The notes under the pieces were generated by a model, which saw only the letters and a program-made list of their open reading frames with translations, did not search any database and was not told the origin of the DNA. A stretch of 64,000 nt of DNA from a virus (taxonomy: Duplodnaviria; Caudoviricetes): positions 1-64,000 of IMG/VR virus record IMGVR_UViG_2667527450_000001; one strand, 5' to 3'. The position numbers and the translations under genes were made by a program. Of this stretch, positions 25,888 to 41,927 are shown one piece after another. Positions within the stretch are counted from its first letter, which is position 1, and each line of letters begins with the position of its first letter.

Positions 25888-25996
25888 GGTCCCCTCCGTT
25901 TCTGTGGAAGGTTCGGAGCTGATCACCGCCTGCGCCTGGGTAGCCGCCCGGGCGCAGGTCTTTATCGCGGGGATTCCCGCGACTCCCATACACACA

Positions 25997-26050
25997 CGTT
26001 AGACATTCGTTGGACATTGGGCAACCGATTCCTGGACCTCATGTCAAACG
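25997..26050. promoter_or_regulatory. Operator repeats between the divergent antirepressor and XRE genes
   Basis: CGTTAGACATT, CGTTGGACATT in tandem; inverted copy ATGTCAAACG at 26041. Confidence 0.55.
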
Positions 26051-26068
26051 GTGGTGCATTATGAAGGC

Positions 26069-26449
26069 ATGGACCTCGACTGGAAGGCGCTTGCGACGGA
26101 GCTGCGGCAGGCGCGACACGAGCAGATGCTCACCATGAACGACCTGGCCGTGCGGTCGGACGTGACACGGTCGACGCTTCACAGTCTCGAACAGGGCACG
26201 GAGCGATCGCGCATTCCGTCATCGCTCAGCAAGGTTGAGCAGGGGCTGGGATGGCCAACCGGGCGCGCCATGGAGATCCTGACCGGCAAGCCGACCCCGG
26301 CCACTGGGGGCGGCTCCGTCAGTGCGGAAGAGATCGAGCGCTCCGTTAGCTACGCAGCCATCGCCGTAATGGACGACATGACCTCCGCGCAGATCAAAGA
26401 GCTTGCGCGTCTCGCGGTGGAGGATCTTCGTCGCCGCGGCGTCATTTGA
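26069..26449 (+). CDS. XRE-family regulator
   Basis: LRQAR...LTMNDLAVRSDVTRSTLHSLEQG...LGWPTG. Confidence 0.85.
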   Translation: MDLDWKALATELRQARHEQMLTMNDLAVRSDVTRSTLHSLEQGTERSRIPSSLSKVEQGLGWPTGRAMEILTGKPTPATGGGSVSAEEIERSVSYAAIAVMDDMTSAQIKELARLAVEDLRRRGVI

Positions 26450-26479
26450 CCCCCTCGGCAGCCTGAAGGCCAGGTGCCC

Positions 26480-26626
26480 CTACCGCGGCGCCAACTCGGT
26501 GTCGAGGTACTGCTGGACGGGCTCGAACAGGCCGTAGGGCGCGGATTCGGGGGCCTCGGTCAGTGTCACCCACGAGACGTCGGCGAGTTCTTCCTCGTCT
26601 GCTACGTGCGCCTCGCCAAGTCTGGC
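26480..26626 (-). pseudogene. C-terminal remnant of a NUDIX hydrolase (pSAM2 Pif-like)
   Basis: Manual translation GEAHVADEEELADVSWV...PYGLFEPVQQYLD*, no start codon; lies downstream of the korSA-like gene. Confidence 0.6.
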
Positions 26627-26646
26627 CCCGCGGCAGGCAGACCGAC

Positions 26647-26686
26647 AAAGCCCAGGCCTGGAGATGATGTCCAGGGCCGGGGCTTT
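26647..26686 (-). terminator. Terminator after the GntR gene
   Basis: AAAGCCCAGGCC...GGCCGGGGCTTT stem. Confidence 0.6.
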
Positions 26687-26731
26687 CGCGTGTCGCGTCT
26701 CGCCCTCCAGTGCTCCGGGGCATGCATCGCC

Positions 26732-27469
26732 TCAGCCCATGTCGTGCTCGGCGGACGTCTTGCGGCCAGCGCCGTAATAGTCGACTGCGTACTCGGTCGG
26801 TTCGCCGTTCTGGTCCCAGTAGTGATTCACCACGGTCAGCAGGGGCGCCCCCGACTCTTCGTCAAGCAGCTCAGCGACGTCGGCCGGAGCGGGGCTGATC
26901 GAGACCGTGTCACGGCGTCGGGCCACACGGCGCCCGGTCTTCTCCTCGATGAGGCCGAAGGTCATCTTCGGCAAAGGCTCGGGTGCGAGGAACTCCGGCG
27001 CCCGATCCGCCAGGGCGCCCGAGATCCAAGTGGCAGAGACCACCGCCACACCCTCGTCGTCTAGGTACTTACGCCGACGGCGCGCCACTTCGGCACCGAG
27101 TTCCAGGTTGAGCGCGTCCGCGACGTCCTGGGTGGCAGGCTGCCGCTCGGCGTCCAGGAACTGGACCTCTTCTCCGTCGGTCAGGCCAGTGCCACCGGAG
27201 CGCACGAGGGTAAGCCGGTCGGCGCCTGTAGTGAGCTTCTTGGGCGCGGCCACGATGGTTCCCACGCCAGGGGTTGCGATAGCCCACCCTTCGTCCCGGA
27301 GGAAGCGGGGTACGCGGGAAGCCGTTGCTGAGCTGATCCCTTCCTTCTTGATGATGTCTCGGACAGACGGCAGAGGGTCGCCCGGCTGCAGTTCACCGCT
27401 CTTGATCCGTTCGATCAACGCCTCAGCGATCCTGCGATACGGTGGGAGGTTTTGTGGGTTTTGTGTCAT
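26732..27469 (-). CDS. GntR/HutC (UTRA) repressor, KorSA/KorA/TraR-like
   Basis: PPYRRIAEAL...GELQPGDPLPSVR...PGVGTIV plus UTRA domain; divergent from the tra operon. Confidence 0.9.
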   Translation of the reverse strand: MTQNPQNLPPYRRIAEALIERIKSGELQPGDPLPSVRDIIKKEGISSATASRVPRFLRDEGWAIATPGVGTIVAAPKKLTTGADRLTLVRSGGTGLTDGEEVQFLDAERQPATQDVADALNLELGAEVARRRRKYLDDEGVAVVSATWISGALADRAPEFLAPEPLPKMTFGLIEEKTGRRVARRRDTVSISPAPADVAELLDEESGAPLLTVVNHYWDQNGEPTEYAVDYYGAGRKTSAEHDMG

Positions 27470-27480
27470 TTAGCCCTCTG

Positions 27481-27538
27481 GGTGTCTTAAGGCGTCTTGG
27501 GACGATCCTTGACTTCGGCAGGTGTCTTAAGTCATTCT
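27481..27538. promoter_or_regulatory. GntR operator repeats overlapping the tra promoter
   Basis: GGTGTCTTAAG at 27481 and 27521, GTCTTGGGAC at 27494; TTGACT (27509)-18 nt-CATTCT (27533). Confidence 0.7.
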
Positions 27539-27664
27539 AGAGCTGTGCCCGAGGACGTACACCGGGGCACAGGCCACTGTGCGCAAAAAGGCCCCAGCGG
27601 GGTCGTCGCGGTGCTCGCAACACCGCGCCCGCCAGGGCCACGCATCCTGAGATTGGAGTTCTCG

Positions 27665-27910
27665 ATGCACGACAACCCTACCGCGCAGGCGCCATCGCAG
27701 GTGGCGTCCTCGAAGCCTTACCGGGTCAAGGAAGTCGCTTCCACCCTTGGTGTCGACATCTCGACCGTGTACGCCGCGATCCACGAGGGCCAACTTGTCG
27801 CGTACCGCGTTGGCTCGGGCCGCGGAACCTTTCGTGTCCCCCGTTCAGCCCTCGCTGAGTACGCCGCAAAGCGCGGCATCCCCAGCGAATTGCTGGAGGT
27901 GGCCTCGTGA
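27665..27910 (+). CDS. Excisionase-family HTH_17 protein
   Basis: YRVKEVASTLGVDISTVYAAIHEGQLVAYRVG...FRVPRSAL. Confidence 0.85.
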   Translation: MHDNPTAQAPSQVASSKPYRVKEVASTLGVDISTVYAAIHEGQLVAYRVGSGRGTFRVPRSALAEYAAKRGIPSELLEVAS

Positions 27911-28299
27911 GCACCGCCCTCGTCGCACCACGCGCTTCCCGCTCGGTGCGCATCCTCGTCCGCGACGCGAAGGTCACCGTCGACTGCCCGGCGTGGTGCG
28001 TCGAGCCTCATACCGAGGTCTACCGGTCCCTGGAGGACGTCGCGCACCGCGGCAGTGAGATCGCTCTGTCGGTGCCCGTCTACGGCGGCGACACCGTGCA
28101 GGTTCTCACCGCCCGGATCGAGTCCTGGCCGTTCGCCGGCGACCCGCAGACGCAGAACCCCTTCTTCGCCTACAACCCGGCGAACGACGAGTTCGCGCAG
28201 ATCACCCCCGAGGTGATGGCTGCCGCAGCCGACCAGGTCATCGCCCATGGGCATGCTCTCCTCGCCCTTGCCGCGACCATCGCCGGGGGTGCCCAGTGA
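27907..28299 (+). CDS. DUF6907-like protein
   Basis: CPAWCVEPH...DVAH motif. Confidence 0.7.
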   Translation: MSTALVAPRASRSVRILVRDAKVTVDCPAWCVEPHTEVYRSLEDVAHRGSEIALSVPVYGGDTVQVLTARIESWPFAGDPQTQNPFFAYNPANDEFAQITPEVMAAAADQVIAHGHALLALAATIAGGAQ

Positions 28300-28580
28300 G
28301 CACCGCTACCGCCCCCGCCATGTCGGCCGCGGACCGTGCCGCGCACCAGGCCGGATCGCACGTCCGTGTCTCGCTGGAGGTCCAGCGTGCTGTGGCCCGT
28401 TTCGAGACTGCCGCGCTGCGGGTGGAGGAACTGTCCGGGCTGGATGCCCGGGGCATGTCCGGCGCTCAGTTCGATTCGCTGGTTCTGGCGCAGGACACGA
28501 TGGCTGAGTCCCGGCGGGTTCTGGAGCTGGCCGGCCTGCTGCACCTGATCGACACGGCCTCGAAGGCGGTGGCCCGATGA
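28296..28580 (+). CDS. Hypothetical protein
   Basis: Coupled on both sides. Confidence 0.65.
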   Translation: MSTATAPAMSAADRAAHQAGSHVRVSLEVQRAVARFETAALRVEELSGLDARGMSGAQFDSLVLAQDTMAESRRVLELAGLLHLIDTASKAVAR

Positions 28581-28894
28581 CCGCTCTGGTTCCGTCCTCG
28601 TTTGCTGCCCCGTCGGGGGGTGAGGGCCTCGTCTCGTCGGTGGGTGCGGCTCGGCCGGGTTCGTTGGTGGCCTTGCGGGGTGTGATCACTGGTGTGGGCG
28701 TGAGTGTGTCCACGTTGACGGTGACGGTGTCGGATGGGGCGGGGTCGGTCTCGATTCACGTTCCGTCGGAGGTGTGGCGGGGTCTGGGTCGTGATGCGTT
28801 CGGTCTGGGTCTGGTGATGTCGCTGGTTGGCTGCAAGCAGGCCGGCTTTGTGTTCGCTGTCCGTGTCGCTTTCGACGGGGTGGTGGGGTCGTGA
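28577..28894 (+). CDS. Hypothetical (OB-fold-like) protein
   Basis: VALRGVITGV...VTVSDGAGSVSI. Confidence 0.5.
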   Translation: MTALVPSSFAAPSGGEGLVSSVGAARPGSLVALRGVITGVGVSVSTLTVTVSDGAGSVSIHVPSEVWRGLGRDAFGLGLVMSLVGCKQAGFVFAVRVAFDGVVGS

Positions 28895-29262
28895 GCAAGT
28901 GGTCCTGCCCGTGGGCGACGACGCACGCGAATGGTCTGGTGACGTCTGGTTCGACGGAGCCGGTGCTCACTGTCCTGGAGGTTCGCGGCTTTCAGCTCCG
29001 CGACATGTTTCTGATCGGCTTCAACCCGGATTGTGGGTCGATCGTGGTCGAGGAGGAGGCGCGGGCCTGGGAGGTCAAGGCGGCGTTGGAGCCGGCGTAT
29101 CGGGTGACCGTCAAGCGGGATCCCGATGGTGATTGGGTCGCTGATTTTGATCGGCGGGAGCTGGATGGGTCTGTGCCGGACTGGTTTGGTCGGACGATTG
29201 CTCTGGCTGACGGCACTGTGGTGATGCGGGATGGTCGTTGGGTCGGGAAGGGCGGTTCGTGA
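28891..29262 (+). CDS. Hypothetical protein
   Basis: Coupled ORF. Confidence 0.6.
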   Translation: MSKWSCPWATTHANGLVTSGSTEPVLTVLEVRGFQLRDMFLIGFNPDCGSIVVEEEARAWEVKAALEPAYRVTVKRDPDGDWVADFDRRELDGSVPDWFGRTIALADGTVVMRDGRWVGKGGS

Positions 29263-29591
29263 TGTCGACTGCTGCTGCCCCGTTCCCGGGTGACTCCGAT
29301 CCGTCGGTGGCGGAGGCTCTGCGCCGCATCACGGATCCGACTGCGCGTCTCGCCGAGGTCGATGAGTCCCGAGCCGACCGTTGTGTGGTCGCGACGATGT
29401 CTCTGCTGGATCGTGGCGCGTCGGTCGACTATGTCGAGCCGTTGCGTTCTCGGGCTCGCCGGCAGTTCGCGGAGGCTGCTGCTGCGACGGAGCAGCCGAC
29501 GTGGCGGTGCCGTGAGTGCGACACGTACAACGGCTGGTCTGACGAGTTCTGCATGGTGTGTGACTCCAAGCGTCCGACCGGGTTGTGGTGA
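29262..29591 (+). CDS. Protein with RanBP2-type zinc finger
   Basis: WRCRECDTYNGWSDEFCMVC matches W-x-C-x2-C-x3-N-x6-C-x2-C. Confidence 0.7.
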   Translation: MSTAAAPFPGDSDPSVAEALRRITDPTARLAEVDESRADRCVVATMSLLDRGASVDYVEPLRSRARRQFAEAAAATEQPTWRCRECDTYNGWSDEFCMVCDSKRPTGLW

Positions 29592-29911
29592 CCGTGGCCG
29601 CCGAGACAGAGCCTGAGCCGCAGCATGACCGGGCCGAGCCGCCGCGTGAGATTCCGCCGCTTCAGCAGCGTGTTCCTGGTGGTTCGTTGTGAGCGCGGAC
29701 GACGAGACGCGTCGTCGTATTGAGTCGATCCGTCGGTCCGAGGCTGCCGCTCGTCGAGCTGAGGCGGCACGCAAGAAGCTTGAGGCCGAACGCCGTTCCG
29801 GCCGTTCCTAGTTCCCGTGCCCCGGGGTTGACCGCACGTCCCCGGGCGCGGTCCCTCCCCGCATCACTCAATCCCATTCGTGCACCACCTTCGCCGAAAG
29901 GTCATGCCGTC

Positions 29912-30019
29912 ATGCCTTCTTCTGCCCGCACCAGCAACTCCACTTGGCCCGAGGGCGTCATTGCCCGCTACCTCACCGCCATCGGGCCCGGTCGATGGGA
30001 ACGCGGCCGGGCCCACTGA
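29912..30019 (+). pseudogene. Short ORF, possibly a truncated phage protein (WPEGVIARYLT)
   Basis: RBS and a conserved-looking N-terminus, ending in a hairpin after 35 aa. Confidence 0.35.
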
Positions 30020-30032
30020 GAGGAGCGATCCG

Positions 30033-30290
30033 ATGTTGTCCCAGTACAAGGCCCGCCAGCGCCACCAGAAGATCATGCGCGTCGCCCACCACCTGCTTCG
30101 CGAGGCGGCCGACCGGCGCCGCCCGGAGTCCCTGCGCTACAACCCTGCCGCCGTTGACGTCACTGCCCAGGACGTCGTCGCCTTCGCCTTCGGTCGCCAC
30201 CAGCTCGACGTGGACGTCGACGAGGCGCAGAAGTTCCTCGACGCAGCCCGCGTCTCTCGCGGCGAGACCGCCGCCCCGGCTACCGCCTGA
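30033..30290 (+). CDS. Hypothetical protein
   Basis: AGGAG RBS. Confidence 0.65.
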   Translation: MLSQYKARQRHQKIMRVAHHLLREAADRRRPESLRYNPAAVDVTAQDVVAFAFGRHQLDVDVDEAQKFLDAARVSRGETAAPATA

Positions 30291-30336
30291 CCCCAAGCCC
30301 CATCCACCGCCCACTTCTTCTGAGAGGACCACCGTC

Positions 30337-30513
30337 ATGCCCGAGAACACTCGCATCGCCTACCTGAACGAGTACCGCGACGCCGTCGCCAAGGGGGACC
30401 TGGACCGGCAGCTGGGCATCCAGCTCGCTGCGCTCGATCTGGACCAGGCGGATCCCGACGGGCCCCGGCTCATGGACGAGATCCGCGGCTTCCGTCAGCC
30501 GGCCGCCGCCTGA
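30337..30513 (+). CDS. Small hypothetical protein
   Basis: GAGGA RBS. Confidence 0.65.
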   Translation: MPENTRIAYLNEYRDAVAKGDLDRQLGIQLAALDLDQADPDGPRLMDEIRGFRQPAAA

Positions 30514-30686
30514 TGTCCGCCGCCGTCCGAGCCGCCCGCAAGGTCGACGCCTACCTCGGCCCGGTCGAGCGGGGTGAGGCCCCGAAGCCCGGCGCAGCCC
30601 AGGCTGCCGGCCTCGCGATCCGCACCGCCGTCCGAGCGGGCATCAGCCCCGCCCAGATCAACGCCGCCCGCACCACCAACCGCTGA
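30513..30686 (+). CDS. Small hypothetical protein (57 aa)
   Basis: TGATG coupling; manual translation MSAAVRAARKVDAYLGP... Confidence 0.55.
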   Translation: MSAAVRAARKVDAYLGPVERGEAPKPGAAQAAGLAIRTAVRAGISPAQINAARTTNR

Positions 30687-30696
30687 AGGAGACCGT

Positions 30697-30876
30697 ATGT
30701 CGCGTTTGAAGAAGGCCGCCGAGGAGCTGCGCAACGACGCTGCCCGGAACCGGGCTGTCGGCCGTGACGAGCAGGCGGCGCGCCAAGAGGCCCGCGCCCG
30801 CGAGCTGGAGTCCGGTCGCGTGACCGACCGCACCGACGACGTACTCGCCATCGTCCGCTTCGGCCTCCGCCGCTGA
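30697..30876 (+). CDS. Small hypothetical protein
   Basis: AAGGAG RBS. Confidence 0.6.
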   Translation: MSRLKKAAEELRNDAARNRAVGRDEQAARQEARARELESGRVTDRTDDVLAIVRFGLRR

Positions 30877-30975
30877 CCAGTTGCCCGATCCGCCCGTCCC
30901 GCACGGGCGGTGAGGGGAGCCGGCCAGCCGAACCCGCCACCACCCCTACCGCATCAACGAGTTGAGGAGACCGTC

Positions 30976-31317
30976 ATGACCGAATGGGAACGCAGCAAGC
31001 GCGGTGCGAAGAAGTTTGCCCGCGAGGTAGAGCTAGGCAAGACGTACTACATCATCATGACCTCCACCAATCCGTGGGGCGACGAACCGGTCTGGACGAG
31101 CTATGTCTTCGACCATCGTCAGGTGTTCACCGGTGGGGCGATGAGCGGTTCCATGTCCGCCGAGGGGCTGTGCCTCAACTACGGTCCGGTGTACGACGAG
31201 AAGCCCGGCTCCCACATCCGTCCGATGTGTGAGCGGGACGACGACCAGCTGTACGCGACGCCCGCGGACATCGTCCAGGTCCGCAAGTCCCGCGACAAGA
31301 AGCCGGCGCGCCGCTGA
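30976..31317 (+). CDS. Hypothetical protein
   Basis: GAGGAG RBS. Confidence 0.7.
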   Translation: MTEWERSKRGAKKFAREVELGKTYYIIMTSTNPWGDEPVWTSYVFDHRQVFTGGAMSGSMSAEGLCLNYGPVYDEKPGSHIRPMCERDDDQLYATPADIVQVRKSRDKKPARR

Positions 31318-31604
31318 TGGCCGCGGTCACCGTTGGTACGGGGATCCGGCCGGAGAGCACGACGTGCTGCGGCCGGCAGCTGGCTCCCTATGACCGTTTC
31401 GGAAAGCTTGTGTACTTCTCGAAGCTGCGGACGGACCGGTGGCTGTGCCAGTTCTGTCACTGCTTCCTGCGGGTGGCTATGAGCGGCTTTGCGCCTCGCG
31501 GTCTGCTCTTGGTGACCGAGGCCAACACCGATGCCTGCCGGCGAGGTCATCGCGCGCCTGCCGTGCCCGACTTCTTCGTCGACCCGGAAGCGAACCCCGC
31601 GTGA
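31317..31604 (+). CDS. Cys-containing hypothetical protein
   Basis: TGATG coupling; CCG...CQFC. Confidence 0.55.
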   Translation: MAAVTVGTGIRPESTTCCGRQLAPYDRFGKLVYFSKLRTDRWLCQFCHCFLRVAMSGFAPRGLLLVTEANTDACRRGHRAPAVPDFFVDPEANPA

Positions 31605-31644
31605 TGTGCAGGGACTACTGACCACTACCCCAGAGGAGATCAAC

Positions 31645-31848
31645 ATGTTCGGACGGAAGACCGACGTCGAGAAGCGGGCCATCGCCGAGATGCGCGAGGC
31701 CGATCGGAAGCTCAATGAGAACAGCGACCGTGAGCGTCGGGCCGGCATCCGCCACGAGACGCCCGAGTACCAGCGCCTCAACCGAATCGCCAACGAGAAG
31801 GCCGCCGAGGTGCCCCGCATGTTCGGCGGCACAAAGCGCGGACGCTGA
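31645..31848 (+). CDS. Small hypothetical protein
   Basis: GAGGAG RBS. Confidence 0.65.
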   Translation: MFGRKTDVEKRAIAEMREADRKLNENSDRERRAGIRHETPEYQRLNRIANEKAAEVPRMFGGTKRGR

Positions 31849-31936
31849 CCGCGCGTCGGTAGCCCCCGCCGCCGGTCTCGTACCGGCGGTGAGGGGAGCC
31901 AGGCAGGCCCCGCACTCACACAGGAGGTTGAACGTT

Positions 31937-32134
31937 ATGGCGAAGCGCTGGACCTGGAATGCAACCGTCGTCGAAGAGAAGCACGGCACGCGCCGCGTCG
32001 GGTCGGCGATGGGAGAGGTCGAGGCCCCCACGCGAGAGGCGGCACGCGCCAAAGCGCGCCGCAGCATCGAGGGCAAGGGCACAGGCCGTACCGCCCACGG
32101 TGTGCAGGTTTTTGAGGGCGGCTGCGGGAACTGA
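31937..32134 (+). CDS. Small hypothetical protein
   Basis: AGGAGG RBS. Confidence 0.6.
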   Translation: MAKRWTWNATVVEEKHGTRRVGSAMGEVEAPTREAARAKARRSIEGKGTGRTAHGVQVFEGGCGN

Positions 32135-32228
32135 CCGCCCAACCCCGCTCGACCGTGAGCCCCGCTATCCCGCTCGCCGGTAGCCCTCGGTCCGCGTCTC
32201 GCACGCGGGCCCTGGAGATCCGACGCAG

Positions 32229-32262
32229 CACCCCACCCCACACCCCACCCCACACCCCACCC
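32229..32262. repeat. Tandem repeat (CACCCCACCCCA) x ~3
   Basis: caccccacccca caccccacccca caccccaccc. Confidence 0.75.
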
Positions 32263-32292
32263 GACCCTCACTTCTCCCTTGAAGGACTCGTC

Positions 32293-32508
32293 ATGCGTCT
32301 CGGCATTTTGATCGGTCTGACCCGAGCCCGGGTCGCCCTGATGATCGCCGGGCTGGCCTGGTTCATGGGCCTGTCCGCCCCGGTCGGCATACGCATCCTC
32401 ATCGCCGGCCTCGTCCTGGCCGGCATCGCCGGAGACGGCGCCGTCGAGGATCACCGCACCAAGACCCCCACCACCACGTCGACCTCCGACTACCGAACCG
32501 CCGCCTGA
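32293..32508 (+). CDS. Small membrane protein (Spd-like)
   Basis: Two TM segments; upstream of the DUF2637-like gene and traB. Confidence 0.6.
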   Translation: MRLGILIGLTRARVALMIAGLAWFMGLSAPVGIRILIAGLVLAGIAGDGAVEDHRTKTPTTTSTSDYRTAA

Positions 32509-32543
32509 CCGGCCCCCCTCACCAGTAAGGAAGGAGAAGCCCG

Positions 32544-33836
32544 ATGACCACCGTCATCGAAGGCAAGGCCACTACCGACACGCAGTTCGATCCGATCGCC
32601 CTGGCCGAGGCGGCAGCGATCCGTACCCGCGCCGAGTCCGAGGCTGAAGCCCGCCGTATCGAGGCCGAGGGCAAGGCCGAAGCCGACAAGATCACGGCGA
32701 CGGAGGAAGCCGAGAAGCTGCGCATCGCCAACGAGCGCGCCGCGATGCGGTTGGAAAAGGAGAGGGCCGACCACCAGGCGCACCTTGCTAAGAAGGCCGC
32801 TGACACCGCGAAGTCCAACGCCGAGGAAGCAAAGGCGAAGAAGGCCCAGGAGGAAGACGCCGAGCGTGAGGCACAGCAGCTGGCCGAGCAGGAGCGCTCC
32901 GAGCGGTACTGGAAGTGGGGTGCCCGCGGCATCTACGCCGTCGGCCTGATCATCGCCGCGCCCGTGCAGTTCATGCACTTCTGGGACCGCGAGCGTCCGT
33001 TCCTCATCGCCGCGCCTGCCCTGCTTGAGGGGCTCGCCCTGGTGCTGGCGTTCGGCGCCGCGTGGGCGGTTGCTCACCGTCGCGACGTCGCTCCGTACCG
33101 GGTCGGCATCATGCTCGGCGCCATCATCGCTGCCGGCATCAACCTGTACGGCGGTTGGACCGATCCCGCGATCGGGTTCAACGCCGGACTCATCGGGGCC
33201 ATCGCTTCCCTCGGCGGTCCGATCGTCCTCATGGCCTACGAACACGGCGTCGCCCAGAAGGCGGACGGCATTCCGTCTTGGCGGGAGAAGCGCGCGGCCG
33301 AAAGCGAGAAGAAGCGTGCAGCCGAAGAACGGCAGAAGGCTAAGGAGGAGAAGGCCACGGCGGAAGAGCGGGCTGCTGCCCAGAAGGCCGCCCAGCAGGA
33401 GCGCGATAGGGGAGAGCAGGCTCGTAAGGATAAGGATCGGCGTGAGCACCACGCGGACGTGTGGGAAGTCGCTGAGGCTCTGCGTTCTGCCCGCGGTTCG
33501 AGCGTGGTGACGGAGCAGATTTGGGCTGACGCCTGGTACCGGGTGACGGGGTCGAAGGTCGTCGGTGTCCGGCCCGAACTGGAGGCTGAGAGCCGGGCGG
33601 CTCAGGCCCGGATGAAGATGGCGTCCGAGGTGCCGATTCTTGGCCAGTTCTCGCACGTCGAATCCCAAAAGGGCCCCGGGTCGAAGAGGGCTCCCGGGAC
33701 CCCCGATGGGCGGCGCTCCAACGGTGGCACCCCGCCCCTCAGGCGGGCCGGTGACGCCCAACCGTACTGCGATGCCGCGAAGAAGCAGGCGGCTCTCGAA
33801 CAAGCCGACACGGCGTCATCTAACAAGACCATCTGA
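32544..33836 (+). CDS. DUF2637-like coiled-coil membrane protein (SpdB2-like spread protein)
   Basis: Coiled coil, four TM helices (AAPVQ, AGINLYG, SLGGP..MAYEH), coiled coil; directly upstream of TraB. Confidence 0.7.
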   Translation: MTTVIEGKATTDTQFDPIALAEAAAIRTRAESEAEARRIEAEGKAEADKITATEEAEKLRIANERAAMRLEKERADHQAHLAKKAADTAKSNAEEAKAKKAQEEDAEREAQQLAEQERSERYWKWGARGIYAVGLIIAAPVQFMHFWDRERPFLIAAPALLEGLALVLAFGAAWAVAHRRDVAPYRVGIMLGAIIAAGINLYGGWTDPAIGFNAGLIGAIASLGGPIVLMAYEHGVAQKADGIPSWREKRAAESEKKRAAEERQKAKEEKATAEERAAAQKAAQQERDRGEQARKDKDRREHHADVWEVAEALRSARGSSVVTEQIWADAWYRVTGSKVVGVRPELEAESRAAQARMKMASEVPILGQFSHVESQKGPGSKRAPGTPDGRRSNGGTPPLRRAGDAQPYCDAAKKQAALEQADTASSNKTI

Positions 33837-33847
33837 GGAGCGTTTCG

Positions 33848-35965
33848 ATGGCTATTCACACTCCCTCTGCGGACACTGAAGAACTCGTGCGGCCGACCCT
33901 GAGCCTCGTCAAGAACACCCCTGTCGAGGGCGCGGTCGTCGAGCATCAGGGTGAGAAGCGCCCGGTGTGGATCCACTCGCAGAGGGCTCTGCGTCACGTG
34001 CTCGATAACCGTCTGTACATCGGCTGGTCGTTGCGCGGGTACCGGGAACTGGGCCGACGGTGGCTGGAGGCGCGGCGAGATGACCACCCGCAGATGATCG
34101 AGAGCGCGCGTCTCGCGCTTCGCGCTGCCAAGCGCAACCTGGACCGTGAGGCGGAGATGCGGGACCTCCTCACCGAACGGCGGGAGGCGTACAGGCGCCA
34201 CAAGCGGATCATGGTCGCTAAGACCGGTGGCTGGGCCGCTGCCATCACAGCTGGCGCCACCGTAGGCGCTGTCACGGGCGGCCCCGTGGTCGACCTCCTC
34301 ATGGGGCTCGGCGCCATGGCCCTCGGCGCCTGCCACGGCCGGCCCGAGCCGGCGGACGACATCGAGGAACCGAACCAGCAGGAGCGGGAGATCGAAGCCG
34401 GGCCTCAGGACGACGTGGCTCCGGCCCCCGCCCCGGCCGCCGCCGAGCGGGCCTTCGACGCTCCGCCGCCCCCGGCCCTCACGATCGAGGAGCTGGACAC
34501 GGCGCTGCGCGAGATCGGCATCGTCAAGGGGCGTGAGCAGATCACTGTCCTCGCGCCACCCGAGCGCGGCGAAGACGGCAACACCACCGCCGTCTTCGAC
34601 CTCCCCGCCCGCGTCACCGTCGCCATGCTCCTGAAGCAACTGGAAGCCCTCGCCGGAGCTCTCGGTCGCGACTCATCGATGATCGACGTGGTCAAGGCCG
34701 GCACCGAACGCCGCGTCTCCCTGTGGATGACCGACGCCAACCCCTTCGGGACGCCGCGCCCGTCCCCCCTGCTGGTTCTGCGAGGCGCCATCGACGCCTG
34801 GAAGAACGGCGTGCCCGTCGCGTGGAACAAGCGCGGCATCACGATCCGGCTGGTCATCAACAACAGCTCGTTTGTCATCGCTGGCATGACCCGCTCCGGC
34901 AAGGGCGTCGGAGCTTCCAACTTGGTCGTGGGCGCCGCCTTTGATCCCCGGATCAACCTGCGGATCGTGGCCGGAAAGAACAACGGCGAATGGGACGCCT
35001 ACGCCAAGACCGGGATCGCTTCCACGTACTTCAAGCCCAGCCCTGAGCGGCTCCTCGCCCTGCTGAAGGGGCTGTTGGCGGACAAGGACCGGCGTGAGGC
35101 CGAGCTGGGCAGGCTCGGCAAGTCCAAGCTTGTGGAGTCTGCCATCGAGCACATTGGCGGGCTGGAGCTGCTGGTCATCGACGAGCTGGCCACGTACACG
35201 CGGCCGGGTAAGCCGCTGCGTGACGAGATCCTGGAAGCTCTGATCGAGCTGTCTGCCGTTGCTGCTGGCGCGGGCATCCTCTTGGTGCTCATCACGCAGT
35301 ACCCCGAGGTCGATGTGATCCCGCAGGCGCTCGCGATGAACTGCGGTACCAAGTGGGCGATGCGCGTGGACAACGCGGATCAGTCCAACGCCATCCTCGG
35401 CAAGGGCTCATCTGGTGCGGGCCGTGACGCTTCCAAGTTCGATCCGCCGCGGCCCGGTCTGGGCTGGCTGGTGAACCCCTTCGCCGGGGTCACCGACAAG
35501 GCCCGTAGCTTCGACCTGGACGAGGACGAGCGGGGTGAAATCACCGTGCTGCTGGAGCGGGCCGCGAAGATCCGCGAGCAGGCGGGCCGTCTCGCCGGGC
35601 AGTGGGATGACGCGATCGAGAGGCAGCTAGTCAATACGACCGGCCTGTCGTCGACAGCCGGCGGGCCGAAGCGGGACGGTGTGCCCGGCCGCCAGGTCCT
35701 CAACCACACGCCGGAGCAGAAGCACCAGATCGCATGCTGCCGTGAGGCTCTGGTGGCGATGGATGAGCTCGGGCGGGATGTGGCGCAGCTGGAAGAGATG
35801 GCGCAGCTCATCGGCGCTATCGCCGGAGACGACCTTGGCAAGGCCCTGCGTGCGGCCGGCGCCGGAGGCACCGTGAAGATCACGTTGCCGGGTCGTGAGG
35901 GGCAGGTGCGCGGCTACCGGCGAGACGACATCAAGGACGCGCTGGACCTGCTGCTTGGTGCATAG
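33848..35965 (+). CDS. traB: TraB-type FtsK/SpoIIIE conjugative DNA translocase
   Basis: N-terminal TM region, Walker A AGMTRSGKG, Walker B LLVIDELA, LITQYP, C-terminal wHTH ending RGYRRDDI. Confidence 0.85.
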   Translation: MAIHTPSADTEELVRPTLSLVKNTPVEGAVVEHQGEKRPVWIHSQRALRHVLDNRLYIGWSLRGYRELGRRWLEARRDDHPQMIESARLALRAAKRNLDREAEMRDLLTERREAYRRHKRIMVAKTGGWAAAITAGATVGAVTGGPVVDLLMGLGAMALGACHGRPEPADDIEEPNQQEREIEAGPQDDVAPAPAPAAAERAFDAPPPPALTIEELDTALREIGIVKGREQITVLAPPERGEDGNTTAVFDLPARVTVAMLLKQLEALAGALGRDSSMIDVVKAGTERRVSLWMTDANPFGTPRPSPLLVLRGAIDAWKNGVPVAWNKRGITIRLVINNSSFVIAGMTRSGKGVGASNLVVGAAFDPRINLRIVAGKNNGEWDAYAKTGIASTYFKPSPERLLALLKGLLADKDRREAELGRLGKSKLVESAIEHIGGLELLVIDELATYTRPGKPLRDEILEALIELSAVAAGAGILLVLITQYPEVDVIPQALAMNCGTKWAMRVDNADQSNAILGKGSSGAGRDASKFDPPRPGLGWLVNPFAGVTDKARSFDLDEDERGEITVLLERAAKIREQAGRLAGQWDDAIERQLVNTTGLSSTAGGPKRDGVPGRQVLNHTPEQKHQIACCREALVAMDELGRDVAQLEEMAQLIGAIAGDDLGKALRAAGAGGTVKITLPGREGQVRGYRRDDIKDALDLLLGA

Positions 35966-35981
35966 GTGCCCGCTTTGCCCG

Positions 35982-36117
35982 GTCTTGCGGGGTGGATATC
36001 ACACCGTTTGCTCCGTCTTTCGGGGTGGCTGGTGGGTGGATCCCATCCGGCTGCCATCCGCCATCGCGGATCCCCTCTCCACCCCGCAAGACGTGTCAAA
36101 CCATGTCATATCCACCC
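35982..36117. repeat. clt-like locus: nested inverted repeats and GGGTGGAT-like 8-mers
   Basis: GTCTTGCGGGGTGG (35982) / CCACCCCGCAAGAC (36079) perfect 14-bp inverted repeat; GGGTGG(A/C)T at 35990, 36023, 36034; inverted copies at 36077 and 36110. Confidence 0.6.
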
Positions 36118-36185
36118 TGCTGGGGCCCTGATGACGCCCAGCGACGGACCACGCGACACGAAACGATCACAAGGAGAAGCGCACG

Positions 36186-36869
36186 GTGGACGACACGAAA
36201 AGCCGATGGGTCTACCTCGTCGGGTCGACTCTGACCAGGCCGGTGAAGATCGGCGTCGCTACGAACGTCAAGGCGCGCCTTGACGAGCTTCGGGTCGGCT
36301 CCCCGCTCCCGCTACACCTGATCTGGAAGGCGCGTGGCGGCCGGGCCCTAGAGAGGACCCTGCATGAGTACTTCTCCCCGTACCGCATCCACGGCGAGTG
36401 GTTCGACTTCGGAGACGAGAACCCCGCAGCGCTCGTCGCCACGGCAGCCGTGCTCATGGGCAGCCCTTCGCATCCCCAGCGCGTAGCGGCAGAGAGCCGT
36501 CTGCGAATCGTCCAAACCTCCCTGACGGCCGACGCGTCGAACGTGATCGGGCACCTGATCAACGCGGCGTCCGAAACCGGGCGAAGCTCGGTGACCAACG
36601 CCGAAGCGTTCGCCTACCTCGCCTCGGTCGACCCGGAGTTCGCTCGCTCCGATGGAGAGGGCGACGAGCAGTACCGATCGCGCGTCGGGAAGCGCCTCGC
36701 TGCCGCCCTGCGTGCAGAAGGCATAGCCGTGCGGCTCACGAAGGTCACGACGGCCGATGGCACGCGAAGCAACGGCTACCGGCTCGAAGCCCTTAGGGCA
36801 GCACTATCTGCTCGGTTCGAGCGTCGCCAACCCGTGCGCGCCACCTGGCCGCCGGCTAACCCCTACTGA
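36186..36869 (+). CDS. T5orf172 (GIY-YIG) nuclease fused to a TraB-like C-terminal wHTH
   Basis: WVYLVG...VKIG...RLDELRVGSP...HGEWF; C-terminus GKRLAAALRAEG...NGYRLEALRAAL. Confidence 0.8.
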   Translation: MDDTKSRWVYLVGSTLTRPVKIGVATNVKARLDELRVGSPLPLHLIWKARGGRALERTLHEYFSPYRIHGEWFDFGDENPAALVATAAVLMGSPSHPQRVAAESRLRIVQTSLTADASNVIGHLINAASETGRSSVTNAEAFAYLASVDPEFARSDGEGDEQYRSRVGKRLAAALRAEGIAVRLTKVTTADGTRSNGYRLEALRAALSARFERRQPVRATWPPANPY

Positions 36870-36979
36870 CCTGTTCGGAAAACACCGGCCTCCGCCATGG
36901 CCGCCACCCCCACGGCGATGGCGAGTAGCTCAGCCGGGGCGCCTCAACCCACCCACCCAACACCCGAGGAGATCACAGC

Positions 36980-37168
36980 ATGTTCACCGGCACCCCAAAG
37001 GAGCTGCGCAAGCTCCAGGACCAAGCCCGCAAGCTCGCCCTCCAGACCGCCGACCTCCTGAACCAACTTGACGCCCTGGGCCTCGGCTCTGGCTCAGGCC
37101 AGCTACACACCCCCGGCGGGATCATCCGCAACCGGCTCGGTCAGGGCTGGATCGTCACCGATCGCTGA
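36980..37168 (+). CDS. Small hypothetical protein
   Basis: GAGGAG RBS. Confidence 0.6.
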   Translation: MFTGTPKELRKLQDQARKLALQTADLLNQLDALGLGSGSGQLHTPGGIIRNRLGQGWIVTDR

Positions 37169-37248
37169 CCGTGGCGGGGCGGCCGTCCACTGCCAGGCGC
37201 ACAGCCGCCCCGCTGTCCACCACCCATCAGCAGCAGACAGGAATCAGC

Positions 37249-37827
37249 ATGCCCACTCTGACCGCCGCCGACCTCGACCAGGCCGCCGCGCGCATCGCCC
37301 CGACCTTGACCGAGCCCGAGCGGGCAGCGTGGGCCAGCATCGCCGCCGGCTACTCCCGCGGCCTTGTCGCCAAGAACACGCAGCAGCTCGTCGACGAGGC
37401 TCTCCGCTCCCTACCGGATCACGGAACCCGGCCCGCGGTCGACGTCCGCCTCCCCGGCCGCATTGCCCGCGCCCTGCCCGACTGGGCGCACCGCACCCGC
37501 ATCGACCTGTCCCACAAGCCCAGCACTCAACTTGCCGTCGCCGCCGAGGTGTTGCGGCGGTGGGGCTGGCAGCAGAAGCCGCACAAGCTCCGCGACTGGC
37601 GCGGTCGGCGCTGCATCTGCGGCGCGATCTGCACCACGGTCGACGGCCTTGGCATTGGCTCGGTCGACTCCGCCCACCAGGCCGCCGGCTACGTCCTGCT
37701 CGAACTCAGGGCGCGCAACTGGAACGCGCTCGTGGGCGATTGGAACCAGCGCGTCTGCCGCACCGCCGAGCAGGCCATCGAACTCGTCACCGCCTCCCAC
37801 CACCGAGCCCTCGCCGCAGGGCACTAA
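37249..37827 (+). CDS. DUF6197-like protein
   Basis: GWQQ...RCICGAI...WNQ...RTAEQAIEL. Confidence 0.7.
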   Translation: MPTLTAADLDQAAARIAPTLTEPERAAWASIAAGYSRGLVAKNTQQLVDEALRSLPDHGTRPAVDVRLPGRIARALPDWAHRTRIDLSHKPSTQLAVAAEVLRRWGWQQKPHKLRDWRGRRCICGAICTTVDGLGIGSVDSAHQAAGYVLLELRARNWNALVGDWNQRVCRTAEQAIELVTASHHRALAAGH

Positions 37828-37841
37828 CCCGAAGGGGACCC

Positions 37842-38381
37842 GTGAACATCACCATCGACCGCCGCTGCCGGAACGCCCGCCGCATCGAGGACCGCATCCG
37901 CGAGATCGGCGACCAGGCCGGTCGCCTCGCCGCACACCACCTCGGCGGTCGTCTACCCCAGGTGGAGATAGTCCTGACCGACGGGAACGGCGTCACCCGC
38001 CTCATTCAGGACGCCGACCTCGCCCTCGCGGGCAACACCTCATGGCGGCGTCGAGCGGTCGGCCGCGTGATTGACCGCTGGCACGGCCGACGTGCCTTCG
38101 CTGCCACAGCCCTCACAGCCCGCGGCGCTCTGGTCGCCATCAACGCCTCCCACAACAGCGACCTCCGCGAACTCGACCGCACCCTCATCCACGAGCTCGG
38201 CCACACCGTCCAGCTGTCGGCTCCCGGAGCCCGCAATCAGCACATTGCCTATCTCCGCCAGCAGTACGGCATCACCCCGCACAGCAAAGACGATCAGCGC
38301 GAATACGAGCGCCTCATCGACGTCCGCGAACAGCAGGCCGCCAACCTCGAAGCCCTCGCCCGACAACTCCCCAACCACTGA
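37842..38381 (+). CDS. Putative zinc metallopeptidase (HExxH)
   Basis: TLIHELGHTVQ plus distal E (REQQA). Confidence 0.7.
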   Translation: MNITIDRRCRNARRIEDRIREIGDQAGRLAAHHLGGRLPQVEIVLTDGNGVTRLIQDADLALAGNTSWRRRAVGRVIDRWHGRRAFAATALTARGALVAINASHNSDLRELDRTLIHELGHTVQLSAPGARNQHIAYLRQQYGITPHSKDDQREYERLIDVREQQAANLEALARQLPNH

Positions 38382-38392
38382 AAGGAACCGCC

Positions 38393-38953
38393 GTGAACAA
38401 CCCATGGAAGAAGGCCAGCACTGTCGCCGACCTCGGCCGACTCATGGCTGAGTGGCTGGAGGGACGAATTCCCACCTGGCCCGGATACATGGACACCCGA
38501 CCCGACGACGAAACCCGACACCTCATCCCCACCCTCGCCGCCGCATGCCGCGCCGGGTACGTCACCACCGGCTCGCAGCCCGGACTGCCGCCCGGCTGCG
38601 GTTACGACGGCCGCACCTGGCGGCAACGCGCCGCGGTCGAAGGGTGGATCGCCGACCCTCATCTCCTCAACCGCATCCGCGCCGGCGCCGAGCGTGCGGG
38701 CATCACGGTCATCGCTAACCGTCCGGGGCAGCGCAGCCACCCCGGCATGCCCGTCACGGAAGCCGGCGCTGAAGTCACTACCGACTTCGGCTGGTCACCC
38801 GGGCACCGCCGGCTGATCGCCAGCATGTGGCGCGGCATCGGCCGGCCCGCAGAGCGTGAGCTTCGCGAGGCCACCCATCTCACCCTCGTCGACCCCGAAT
38901 GGGGCCGCGACAACTGGCTCTGGCCCGCACTCGCCCACGCCACCAACCGCTGA
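38393..38953 (+). CDS. DUF6919-like protein
   Basis: RAGYVTTGSQPG...QRAAVEG...VDPEWGRD.WLW. Confidence 0.7.
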   Translation: MNNPWKKASTVADLGRLMAEWLEGRIPTWPGYMDTRPDDETRHLIPTLAAACRAGYVTTGSQPGLPPGCGYDGRTWRQRAAVEGWIADPHLLNRIRAGAERAGITVIANRPGQRSHPGMPVTEAGAEVTTDFGWSPGHRRLIASMWRGIGRPAERELREATHLTLVDPEWGRDNWLWPALAHATNR

Positions 38954-38966
38954 AGGGAACTCCCTC

Positions 38967-39215
38967 ATGTCCCGCTACTCCCAGGCCCGCCTCAACAAGG
39001 AAGCCGCCGGCTTCGAAGCCGAAGCGAAGCGCGCCGCCGCGGCTGCCCGCGACGGCGACCGCGCCGCCAAGGACCCGAACCTCGACACCTACAACCAGGG
39101 CGTCGCCGCCCGCTGCGCCGCCATCGCCCGCAGCAACGCCCGCGAGTACCGCGAGATCGCTGCCGCCCTGCGCGACGGCGAGATCCCCGAAGGCGTCCGG
39201 CTCGACCTCGACTAA
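38967..39215 (+). CDS. Hypothetical protein
   Basis: RBS, codon bias. Confidence 0.65.
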   Translation: MSRYSQARLNKEAAGFEAEAKRAAAAARDGDRAAKDPNLDTYNQGVAARCAAIARSNAREYREIAAALRDGEIPEGVRLDLD

Positions 39216-39248
39216 CCCACCCCGCCCCAGCAGAAAGGACCACACGCC

Positions 39249-39560
39249 ATGACCACCGACCTTCACGGCAAGCCCCAGGCAGCGACCTTCCTCTCCTTGT
39301 ACGCCGACGACGTCGCCTTCGTCACCGAAGAGGCCCCGGCCACCACGCTGCAGGACTTCATCAACCAGCTCTCCACGGCAAGCAGCCGCCTGGACAGCGT
39401 GGGCATCAACGGCGCCGAGGAGCTCGACACCGCGGCGATCTACCTTTCCGACGCCGCCCACAACGCCTCTGGCACCGACCAGATCGCCCTCTTCAACCAG
39501 GCCGACGAGCACTTGCGCGACGTCACAGACATGGTCGACGAGTACCGCCTCATGGTCTGA
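39249..39560 (+). CDS. Acidic hypothetical protein
   Basis: GAAAGGA RBS. Confidence 0.7.
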   Translation: MTTDLHGKPQAATFLSLYADDVAFVTEEAPATTLQDFINQLSTASSRLDSVGINGAEELDTAAIYLSDAAHNASGTDQIALFNQADEHLRDVTDMVDEYRLMV

Positions 39561-39642
39561 CCACCCCTCCCGGTGAGGCCCGGACCGAGCCGACAGGCCG
39601 GGCCCACCGTCAATCCACCACCACACCGAAGGGAGCCCCACT

Positions 39643-39945
39643 ATGGGCTGGACCATCTCGCATGGCGTCCAGAACACCCGCTCCGCCACGACGATCCACA
39701 ACCTTGCCCAACACCTCGCCCACGTCCTGTCGGCATCCGACTGGCGCGCCATTGAGCCGGTCTTCGGCTACCGCTCCGGTGACCCGTTCCAGGTCCCGCA
39801 CGCCGACGCCCGACGGCTCGCCGCCGTCCTGCGACGAGCCGCCAACCACCGCAAAATGCCCGCCGACTGGGGTGCGCTCGCCCGCGAACTCGCAGACTCC
39901 GCAGAGCGCGCTGCCTCAGCGCGGCAGCCCTGGAAGTGGCGTTAG
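39643..39945 (+). CDS. Hypothetical protein
   Basis: GGGAG RBS; MGWTISHG...QPWKWR. Confidence 0.7.
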   Translation: MGWTISHGVQNTRSATTIHNLAQHLAHVLSASDWRAIEPVFGYRSGDPFQVPHADARRLAAVLRRAANHRKMPADWGALARELADSAERAASARQPWKWR

Positions 39946-40051
39946 AGGAACTGGGCGAGTGATGCGCACCGACGGATCACACGTCTGACTGGAATTTCGC
40001 GACCAAGCGAACACCCGCATAGCTCACCGCGCCCCTGGAAAGGGACCGCTC

Positions 40052-40432
40052 ATGCCCATCGGACCCGGCTTCGACGACCCCGAGTACGACAACTACGACC
40101 CCGCGTGGCGACACCAGGACACCCCGTTCCGACGGTGGCTCCACGAGCGTCTCACCGCAGCTGGCAGCGATTGCTCGGCCGACATCGCCGCAAGCTACGC
40201 CCCTGCCAACCGCTACCACGGCCTGAACGCCATCGACCTGGACGACCTCGCCACCCTCACCGACACCACCGGCGCCGCCGTGCAAGCCGCTCACAAAGCC
40301 GACCTCGACGAGTGGGCGCGCGAGCAGCAGCTACGCGATCACCCTGACCTGGCCGTCCTCGACGCCGACCTGGACCGCATCCGACACCGCTCCGGAGCTC
40401 GCCATCCGGCCTCTCGGCGGTGGCGTGAATGA
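40052..40432 (+). CDS. Hypothetical protein
   Basis: RBS, codon bias. Confidence 0.65.
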   Translation: MPIGPGFDDPEYDNYDPAWRHQDTPFRRWLHERLTAAGSDCSADIAASYAPANRYHGLNAIDLDDLATLTDTTGAAVQAAHKADLDEWAREQQLRDHPDLAVLDADLDRIRHRSGARHPASRRWRE

Positions 40433-40577
40433 CGGCCACATCCTGATGCTGCCGAGGGTCCATGTAGCCGGCGCCGGCAATCGGCATGGGCGCCCGGTGT
40501 TTTAATGAGGCGAGAAGGGGAGGGGTCAGCACTGGATGGTCCCTCCCCCCTCTTCGGGCATCAAGGGAGGACTCCAG

Positions 40578-40766
40578 ATGGGCTTCCTGTACATCGCCGT
40601 CTTCGCCGGGTTCCTCTATCTTGCGCCCGCGATCCTCCTATGCAAGAAAGTGGCCAAGAAGACCACTGCGAAGATGGGCTGGGCCTTTGCCTTCGGACTG
40701 ATAGGTCTCCCCATCGCCTTGCTGGTCATCGGCGGGGTGATCGAAGCTCAAGGGGCCGCTGGGTGA
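40578..40766 (+). CDS. Small two-TM membrane protein (moron-like)
   Basis: GGAGG RBS; two hydrophobic segments. Confidence 0.6.
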   Translation: MGFLYIAVFAGFLYLAPAILLCKKVAKKTTAKMGWAFAFGLIGLPIALLVIGGVIEAQGAAG

Positions 40767-40821
40767 GCGGCATCGACGTCGGAGTGCATGCTCGCTCCGA
40801 CCGTGCATTCCCCAGAGGCGA

Positions 40822-41004
40822 TCAGGCTGGCCGGCGCTCTCGCCGAACTTCAGGGCGTGCCGCCGCGCGGGCCAGCCACCGCCCCCGCCCCAGAACGATC
40901 GAGGGCCGTCCGAGCGGCGTCAGGTCCAGCGCGTGGCACAGGCGCTGGAGCTCAGCTGCCGCCGTGGATTCCGAGTCGGCGAGCACCGTATAGACCGTCG
41001 ACAT
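40822..41004 (-). CDS. Small hypothetical protein
   Basis: 60-aa ORF with plausible composition. Confidence 0.5.
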   Translation of the reverse strand: MSTVYTVLADSESTAAAELQRLCHALDLTPLGRPSIVLGRGRWLARAAARPEVRRERRPA

Positions 41005-41150
41005 ATCGGCATTCTGCCGTCACCACAGCGCAGTTGGCGGAGAAACACGTCGGATTCACCCCGGCGGTGGGGCCCCGGGATTGTCGGGCACCCGCTGCAC
41101 AATGGCGACAGCCCACCTCATAGCCCTGGCACCGCAGCGAGGAGCCCGCC

Positions 41151-41804: not shown

Positions 41805-41812
41805 AACGGCAC

Positions 41813-41904: not shown

Positions 41905-41927
41905 GCGTGCTCGAACTGGAGGTGCCC

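Follow-up and report, generated by a model that had tools for sequence, protein, structure and literature searches.

A pSVH1-type TraB-SpdB2 transfer cassette that is probably a built-in part of a temperate Streptomyces siphovirus prophage

In the Streptomyces venezuelae plasmid pSVH1 (NC_007431.1), a 12.6-kb rolling-circle replicon, the gene traR on the minus strand is followed by spdB3, spd79, spdB2, orf108, traB, a spacer with repeats, and spd198. According to the available part of Thoma et al. (2015, PMC4447253), TraB reads the repeats of the clt site, the TraB-clt pair of plasmids mediates inter-mycelial transfer, traB and traR form a kil-kor pair, and the pSVH1 spd genes are required for spreading and not for primary transfer. 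SpdB2 is described there as a protein with four transmembrane helices and a coiled-coil amino terminus. The plasmid-phages pZL12/phiZL12 and pFP4 conjugate and also make particles, as stated in excerpts of PMC4170104 and PMC3583192. Their primary reports (Zhong et al. 2010, J Bacteriol 192:3747; Chen et al. 2012, Plasmid 68:170) are known through excerpts of PMC3583192, PMC4170104, PMC4487206 and PMC7157519, in which a pZL12 relative, pSLE1, is said to have ParA/ParB. Here we describe a stretch of 64,000 nucleotides of viral DNA (IMG/VR record IMGVR_UViG_2667527450_000001; hereafter the window), which corresponds to positions 2-64001 of contig C70 of genome G000, at the left end of this 414-kb contig. 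Homologues of TraR, SpdB2, TraB and Spd198 lie in it, within an integrated prophage that has a virion gene set.

On balance, the gene content and order of this region point to a complete transfer and spread cassette of the pSVH1 type that is built into a single temperate siphovirus prophage of 72.8 kb and that may move phage DNA in a capsid-free manner. This role is read from homology and anatomy, and what underlies it as direct observation is the homology, the gene order, the att pair, the empty integration site and the recurrence of the module in other prophages. The four homologues stand in the gene order of pSVH1, with the GntR-type repressor gene divergent from the spd/tra genes and with a repeat site directly 3' of traB. 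A first-pass annotation made from the nucleotide sequence had proposed a likeness to the tra/spd/clt regions of Streptomyces plasmids, and had listed a GntR-UTRA repressor, operator repeats, a Xis-like gene, small genes, proteins with two and four transmembrane segments, a TraB and repeats. All these elements are present in this part of the window (Table 1), and the homology to pSVH1 bears out the likeness.

The TraB homologue (P0001) is 30% identical to pSVH1 TraB over 380 amino acids (E 3e-36), matches phrog_1358 (2.8e-26), and gives a sequence match to the FtsK structure 2iuu of the PDB (E 1.3e-4). Its Walker A (GMTRSGKG at residue 346) and Walker B (LLVIDE at 441) motifs are intact, as had been claimed and as expected for an FtsK/SpoIIIE-like TraB of the pSVH1 type; hydrophobic segments are found at residues 128-164. 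The usable parts of the structure model are the segment 211-295 and the carboxyl terminus, where residues 621-705 have a predicted local distance difference test score (pLDDT) of 77-92 and a helix-helix-helix-strand-strand topology. TraB is thus predicted to carry a carboxyl-terminal winged-helix domain for DNA recognition. In the fold search the carboxyl terminus matched winged-helix domains of Rex (Z 7.1, root-mean-square deviation (rmsd) 2.6, 70 residues aligned) and of MarR-type proteins (Z 5.4-5.5), all middling Z values, and the other best matches were the motor of FtsK (2ius) (Z 8.6, rmsd 7.9), the coupling protein TcpA (Z 8.6 over 82 residues) and EccC ATPases; these matches are weak because the overall model is poor.

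The repeat cluster lies in the 220-bp spacer that follows traB. Of the 16 GGGTGGA copies of the window, four fall there in a stretch of 128 bp, two of them in direct and two in inverted orientation, together with one GGGTGGC. In pSVH1, repeats of the GACCCGGA type come directly after traB, and in six of nine relatives with a TraB of the window type a CCCGGAC- or CCGGACA-type 7-mer is present four to seven times in the first ~150 bp past the traB stop codon. Inverted copies follow these arrays, which reproduces the architecture of pSVH1 with nearly the same motif; the other three relatives (L055, L059 and L003) have no such 7-mer in at least three copies 3' of traB. At the position of the CCCGGAC-type repeats the window has a different motif, GGGTGGA, which also differs from the GACCCGGA of pSVH1. 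By its place and architecture, shared with pSVH1 and the six relatives, the cluster is a clt-like, putative transfer site. Compared with the closest relative, the window TraB reaches 93% identity in the ATPase core but only 59% in the carboxyl-terminal domain, the wing of which reads QVRGY in the window and RVNGY in all eight relatives. The repeat motif therefore differs where the TraB carboxyl terminus differs, a correspondence that is suggestive, being one coincident change only. A literature search for the repeat motif returned unrelated matches only.

The 430-amino-acid product of the gene upstream of traB was assigned to SpdB2 by profile comparison, simpler methods giving no match. The profile of nine homologues aligned to pSVH1 SpdB2 in hhalign at 99.3% probability (E 2.9e-20, 183 columns); pairwise BLASTP to the same protein was not significant (E 0.16), and no Pfam model matches either the window protein or pSVH1 SpdB2. 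The charged, alanine-rich amino terminus, in which A, E, K, R and Q make up a fraction of 0.67 over residues 1-120, and the hydrophobic segments at residues 125-233 agree with the published description of SpdB2. The repressor is 26% identical to pSVH1 TraR over 201 amino acids (E 4e-11), and the DUF6197 protein encoded 3' of the repeat site is 34.6% identical to Spd198 over 156 amino acids (E 1e-11). The candidate operator next to the repressor gene, GGTGTCTTAAG, has no further exact copy anywhere in the window.

Between the repressor gene and spdB2 the window has many more small genes than pSVH1. The small co-oriented genes up to the one coding the two-transmembrane-segment protein are candidates for Spd-like proteins, and several of them are common to the closest provirus (L054). 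SpdB3, Spd79 and Orf108 of pSVH1 have no homologue in the window by BLASTP. Genes were called by a heuristic based on third-position GC content (GC3), in DNA of ~68% G+C, so start codons are approximate; the gene of the HTH_17 protein probably starts further downstream than called. Within the gene of the two-transmembrane-segment protein, ~300 bp 5' of spdB2, there is a tandem array of CACCCCACCCCA (32229-32267, 2.8 copies, 100% match) that is similar to TCCACCCC, the inverted arm in the repeat site 3' of traB. This array may be a second TraB site or merely a coding repeat. Contigs of public sequencing runs break exactly there.

The prophage appears as a single insertion. Its two 21-bp att cores, 72.8 kb apart, are the only copies in the genome when up to three mismatches are allowed, a single match with four mismatches being located on another contig; contig C70 has no third copy even with four mismatches. 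In 23 of 24 same-genus genomes the site is empty, the HTH_22 gene and the OHCU decarboxylase gene, which is the host gene just after attR, being 24-474 bp apart. The exception is G002, where these flanking host genes are separated by 4.2 kb; in G000 the distance is 72.8 kb. The Pfam scan of the window gives the layout of a prophage, with integrase, early genes, DnaB, transfer region and then the late block, whose GH25 lysin gene extends beyond the window end. An att-adjacent integrase, replication genes and a full packaging, head, tail and lysis block are thus found in one att-bounded unit of the temperate siphovirus type, and the earlier proposal that the module is built into a complete siphovirus genome is supported.

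Table 1. Features of the prophage, with positions in the window unless contig C70 is named
Feature	Position	Strand	Basis or remark
attL core, 21-bp exact repeat	1209-1229 (contig 1210)	+	in 3' end of host HTH_22 gene (874-1254)
Tyrosine integrase	1389-2810	-	Pfam Phage_integrase 8e-19
DUF5131 gene	between integrase and DnaB in listed order		Pfam
Gp3-like domain protein	8393-9337		Pfam
tRNA-Leu, anticodon UAA	11442-11519		inside early region
DnaB-type replicative helicase, phage replication block	13904-15259	+	Pfam DnaB_C 1.1e-61
Bro-N protein	after DnaB, before transfer region		Pfam
TraR/Kor-like GntR-UTRA repressor	26732-27469	-	Pfam GntR and UTRA
Two exact 11-bp direct repeats GGTGTCTTAAG, candidate operator	27481-27531 (copies at 27481 and 27521, 40 bp apart)	+	just upstream of GntR gene
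HTH_17 (excisionase/MerR-like) DNA-binding protein	27497-27910	+	Pfam HTH_17 1.3e-9; phrog_66
Run of small co-oriented genes: DUF6907, about ten small open reading frames (ORFs)	27907-32508	+	ORF calls, Pfam
Protein with two transmembrane segments, last of small-gene run	32155-32508	+	
SpdB2 homologue, 430 amino acids	32544-33836	+	coiled-coil-like amino terminus, four hydrophobic segments
TraB, FtsK-like double-stranded DNA translocase, 705 amino acids (P0001)	33848-35965	+	amino-terminal domain, motor, predicted carboxyl-terminal winged helix
clt-like repeat cluster	35987-36120		direct GGGTGGA/GGGTGGC, then inverted TCCACCC copies
T5orf172/GIY-YIG-type nuclease gene	36186-36869	+	between repeat cluster and spd198 homologue
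Spd198 homologue (DUF6197)	37171-37827	+	Pfam
DUF6919, 103-amino-acid ORF, DUF7739	38393-39945	+	also adjoin traB on plasmid CP042280.1
Two genes, 217 and 112 amino acids	41151-42170	+	recur between traB and terminase gene in relatives
Late genes: large terminase (at 43649), portal, major capsid, tail tube, tape measure, GH25 lysin	43649-64000	+	Pfam; synteny with G234 and G180
attR core, second 21-bp copy	contig C70 73967-73987, outside window		original HTH_22 gene end still readable there

Integrative and conjugative elements of actinomycetes (AICEs) resemble the prophage in site-specific integration, in a single FtsK-like Tra protein and in a GntR-type regulator. They differ from it in size, 10.9-17.3 kb for the AICEs named in the available part of a review against 72.8 kb here, and the prophage, integrated into the 3' end of a protein-coding gene unlike AICEs, has all the genes of a virion and of lysis (terminase, portal, capsid, tube, tape measure, lysin) where an AICE would be small and lack morphogenesis genes. 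RepSA and RepAM are also missing from the contig, as the first-pass annotation had said: the three RepSA (PF20199) matches of the genome are on contigs C48 and C78 and none on C70, Prim-pol not having been searched for, and the two RepAM (PF12307) matches are on C49 and C78 and none on C70. The element has DnaB instead. No convincing direct repeat brackets the transfer module, again in agreement with that annotation, and a nested element with its own att was rejected on this ground together with the missing third att core. The statement that there is no second integrase holds for the window, but a weak integrase-like ORF is found beyond it, inside the same element. ParA/ParB were not seen among the scanned ORFs, which are not all ORFs of the element.

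Because RepSA and RepAM matches (three and two, on C48, C49 and C78) lie on other contigs, G000 probably holds several classical AICEs. With P0001 at E 1e-3 no second TraB was found in G000 besides a weak match on contig C83, taken to be the chromosomal FtsK.

The module is not confined to G000. A terminase search of 400 same-genus genomes gave two close relatives, G234 (71% identity) and G180 (67%), in both of which the whole late block of the window is kept in order. At the equivalent place G234 codes for an SpdB2 homologue (55%) followed by a TraB-like ATPase of 692 amino acids. A TraB search of 36 same-genus genomes gave three with close relatives. In G024 and G025, TraB and SpdB2 are accompanied by a different large terminase (TerL), an SPP1-type portal, an HK97-type capsid protein and a long tape-measure-like protein; in G023 (65% TraB identity) the cassette occurs with DnaB/DUF3987 and DEAD helicases. 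A further 28 IMG/VR provirus contigs, up to 88 kb long, have TraB relatives, eight of the window type and 20 of the G025 type. In 24 of these the contig extends 2 kb or more upstream of TraB, and all 24 show an SpdB2-like match there. Morphogenesis genes were verified in 12 of the 28: eight have a terminase homologue at most 10 kb 3' of traB, and four more show terminase, portal, capsid or tape-measure genes. Among 32 large ORFs at most 10 kb 3' of traB, nine match portal families and others TerL domains. The SpdB2-TraB pair is thus placed between early and late genes across prophages with at least three different late-gene sets, and this constancy of position argues for an integral phage module rather than a nested AICE.

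A quick tree of TraB, with long branches and midpoint rooting, separates two clades (SH-aLRT 100). The first contains pSVH1 TraB, TraBs of other genomes and the window type; the second contains G024, G025, G234 and the FtsK-like protein of the virulent phage Bmoc, so that G234 and the window have TraBs of different clades. The TraB of G025/G234 type is 34-38% identical to FtsK-like proteins of ~90 isolated virulent Streptomyces phages of 130 kb. In Bmoc the corresponding gene lies at 73724-75541 of NC_055842.1 (L082), and ~90 records are similar. Virulent phages of ~130 kb (Bmoc, Jay2Jay, NootNoot, Wofford and others) thus carry FtsK-like proteins of the same superfamily. The window TraB differs from these in having no match in the phage collection at E 1e-5 and in grouping with pSVH1-type TraBs; query P0002 likewise had no tblastn match in that collection.

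Several observations weigh against a built-in cassette for capsid-free transfer. The sibling prophage G180 has no TraB in the 100 kb examined by tblastn and hidden Markov models, from which it follows that the phage lineage can do without the module. G023 shows no late genes in the ~32 kb annotated 3' of traB, where host genes begin; in the 40 kb upstream of its TraB no homologues of the late-gene queries were found, a search that leaves unrelated late genes aside. Plasmid CP042280.1 has a TraB (55% identity, in three pieces), DUF6197, DUF6919 and DUF7739 and no late genes, and the occurrence of the window TraB type in this plasmid and in the phage-less G023 makes a recent acquisition possible. 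The clade of the G024, G025 and G234 TraBs includes the FtsK-like proteins of ~90 virulent Streptomyces phages; such phages cannot profit from conjugative inheritance, and a purely phage-internal role is therefore possible. The window TraB scores below the FtsK_SpoIIIE cut-off of Pfam (16.7 against 24 bits, pSVH1 TraB reaching 46.1 bits), and its structure model is poor, with a mean pLDDT of 45.7. Finally, GGGTGGA is not enriched over the whole window (16 found, 13.8 expected), only its clustering being notable.

The absence of the module from G180, the TraB of G234 from another clade and the TraB type shared with G023 and the plasmid indicate a mosaic, exchangeable cassette. By this distribution the cassette is best described not as a nested AICE but as a module that belongs to a mosaic family of temperate Streptomyces phages as an integral part and can nevertheless be exchanged. 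The idea of a domesticated module accordingly survives in part, since it is integral to the prophage and recurs in others, but it is exchanged among them and does not reflect a one-off domestication. Similarly, the expectation that relatives would keep the module agrees with SpdB2-TraB standing beside late genes in G234, G024, G025 and proviruses and disagrees with its lack in G180.

The most likely role of the cassette, judged from its homologies, would be to move phage DNA, once excised and replicating, from hypha to hypha and through septa by a capsid-free route. In such a cycle the GntR repressor would be relieved and the phage integrase would excise the element, the circle then being replicated by the DnaB-based system. 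TraB hexamers would dock through their carboxyl-terminal winged helix on the repeats 3' of traB. Acting jointly with the small membrane proteins and SpdB2, TraB would pump the phage circle as double-stranded DNA through septal cross-walls and into adjacent hyphae, by a route independent of the capsid route of the late genes.

A serious rival, although we consider it unlikely, is that the cassette serves the infection cycle only and, once a virion has entered a single hyphal compartment or the prophage has been induced, spreads phage DNA across the septa of one mycelium, with no inter-mycelial transfer. Intramycelial spread was suggested for phage SpdB2 homologues in the available text of Thoma et al. 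(PMC4447253), the source that also gives the pSVH1 spd genes a part in spreading and none in primary transfer, and the ~90 virulent phages with G025/G234-type homologues would gain nothing from stable conjugative inheritance. The same text assigns inter-mycelial transfer to the plasmid TraB-clt pair, which argues against a role confined to one mycelium, as do the grouping of the window TraB with plasmid/AICE-type TraBs rather than with the virulent-phage clade in the quick tree and the gene context of Bmoc, whose FtsK-like gene has neither an SpdB2-like nor a GntR neighbour.

It is less probable still that the cassette is a passenger recently recombined from an AICE or a plasmid and without function for the phage. 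Such an origin would fit the cassette-free sibling G180, the same TraB type with DUF6197, DUF7739 and DUF6919 neighbours in the phage-less G023 and plasmid CP042280.1, and the presence within the cassette of a homing-type nuclease gene. This T5orf172 gene is not matched by tblastn in L054, the closest relative, and looks like a homing-type insertion. Against a functionless passenger, all cassette genes are intact, SpdB2-TraB holds the same position, with early genes on one side and late genes on the other, in prophages whose late-gene sets are of at least three unrelated kinds and recurs in 28 provirus contigs, and a repeat site is kept beside traB in six of nine relatives, with a motif that differs where the TraB carboxyl terminus differs.

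Two other nuclease genes of the GIY-YIG/T5orf172 type lie elsewhere in the prophage (17715-18398 and 24322-24996, both on the minus strand). A resemblance of the T5orf172 carboxyl terminus to that of TraB was discarded (BLASTP E 1.6, not significant).

TraB and SpdB2 might also do something else for the phage, for example exclude incoming DNA, arrest host growth (kil) or mobilise host chromosomal DNA. The toxicity of traB in the absence of traR, the kil-kor effect reported in the available part of PMC4447253, and the FtsK-like genes of virulent phages, to which annotation assigns no role, leave room for this; the conserved cis repeats directly 3' of traB point to recognition of the element's own DNA, and the explanation is a very improbable one.

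Least probable of all is accretion, in which two elements would lie next to each other at one att: an AICE-like one that runs from the integrase to TraB, and another, from the terminase to the right end, that is a separate and possibly defective prophage. In its favour one could cite two genes located beyond the window near the right end, an integrase-like ORF with a weak match and a second GntR gene of the TraR-like kind, and accretion at one site as described for AICEs in the available part of PMC9513070. It is contradicted by the lack of a third 21-bp core on contig C70 even with four mismatches, by a late block that by itself has no replication or lysogeny genes, by the normal prophage order of att, integrase, early, replication, late and lysis functions, by the persistent association of TraB and late genes in relatives, and by the recurrence of right-arm genes in provirus G425 (86% identity).

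Besides these two genes, the right arm (64-74 kb of the contig, beyond the window) holds DUF6879 and an HTH_31/DUF5753 regulator. The integrase-like ORF (C70 70400-71449; L034 6400-7449), just inside attR, has a Pfam E value of 7e-5 and is below the cut-off. The second GntR gene (C70 72789-73433; L034 8789-9433) is 32.7% identical to pSVH1 TraR (E 2.5e-13) and closer to it than the repressor of the module is. Both genes may have been left behind by an element that occupied the site earlier, or they may belong to the phage right arm. At the left side, the Gp3-like protein belongs to a Pfam family named for a recombination directionality factor and occurs here together with a tyrosine recombinase as the only clear integrase of the prophage. 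The gp3 of phiC31 is the partner of a serine integrase.

No isolated phage could be used as a reference, since the relatives of the terminase among isolated phages are distant (at most 37.5% identity). Megablast with the whole region gave nothing among the phages of the collection and, for plasmids, short pieces only. An 80-kb contig of public run X1, possibly the source, spans 24500-44400 with no differences, and contigs of the independent run X2 tile the same interval with no differences except breaks at 32223-32274 and 34351-34449. The X2 contigs show the same arrangement in a second sample and have no bearing on excision or expression. A few joints in run contigs, with sides of only 20-24 letters, were not counted.

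Among described systems, pZL12 and pFP4 are alike in combining phage particle genes with a tra gene for conjugal transfer on one replicon, a combination that the gene content of the window also shows. As far as the available descriptions go (the comparison was by description and not by sequence), they are extrachromosomal, unlike the chromosomally integrated element described here with its defined att, tyrosine integrase and AICE-like GntR switch. A conjugating phage is therefore not new in principle, the printed precedents found being extrachromosomal plasmid-phages only. A literature search turned up no account of an integrated prophage that has the TraR-SpdB2-TraB-clt set in full; it did not cover the supplementary AICE lists of PMC9513070 and PMC3218068, in which such elements might be listed.

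More tentatively than for the single prophage, the recurrence of the module suggests a widespread mosaic family (55-88 kb) of integrating Streptomyces phages with a dual mode of transmission, either as virions or as naked double-stranded DNA that TraB, SpdB2 and clt would pump into adjacent hyphae and through septa, with a GntR switch of its own. On the same reasoning, the FtsK-like genes that virulent Streptomyces phages carry might help phage DNA to pass through the compartments of the mycelium.

A working cassette would give this temperate phage, whose host is a mycelial bacterium, a second and capsid-free route of transmission, bypassing receptor-based host range and most extracellular barriers. 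The boundary between phage, AICE and plasmid would be blurred, and models of Streptomyces gene flow and prophage spread would change. The unexplained FtsK-like and SpdB2-like genes of actinophages would also acquire a testable function.

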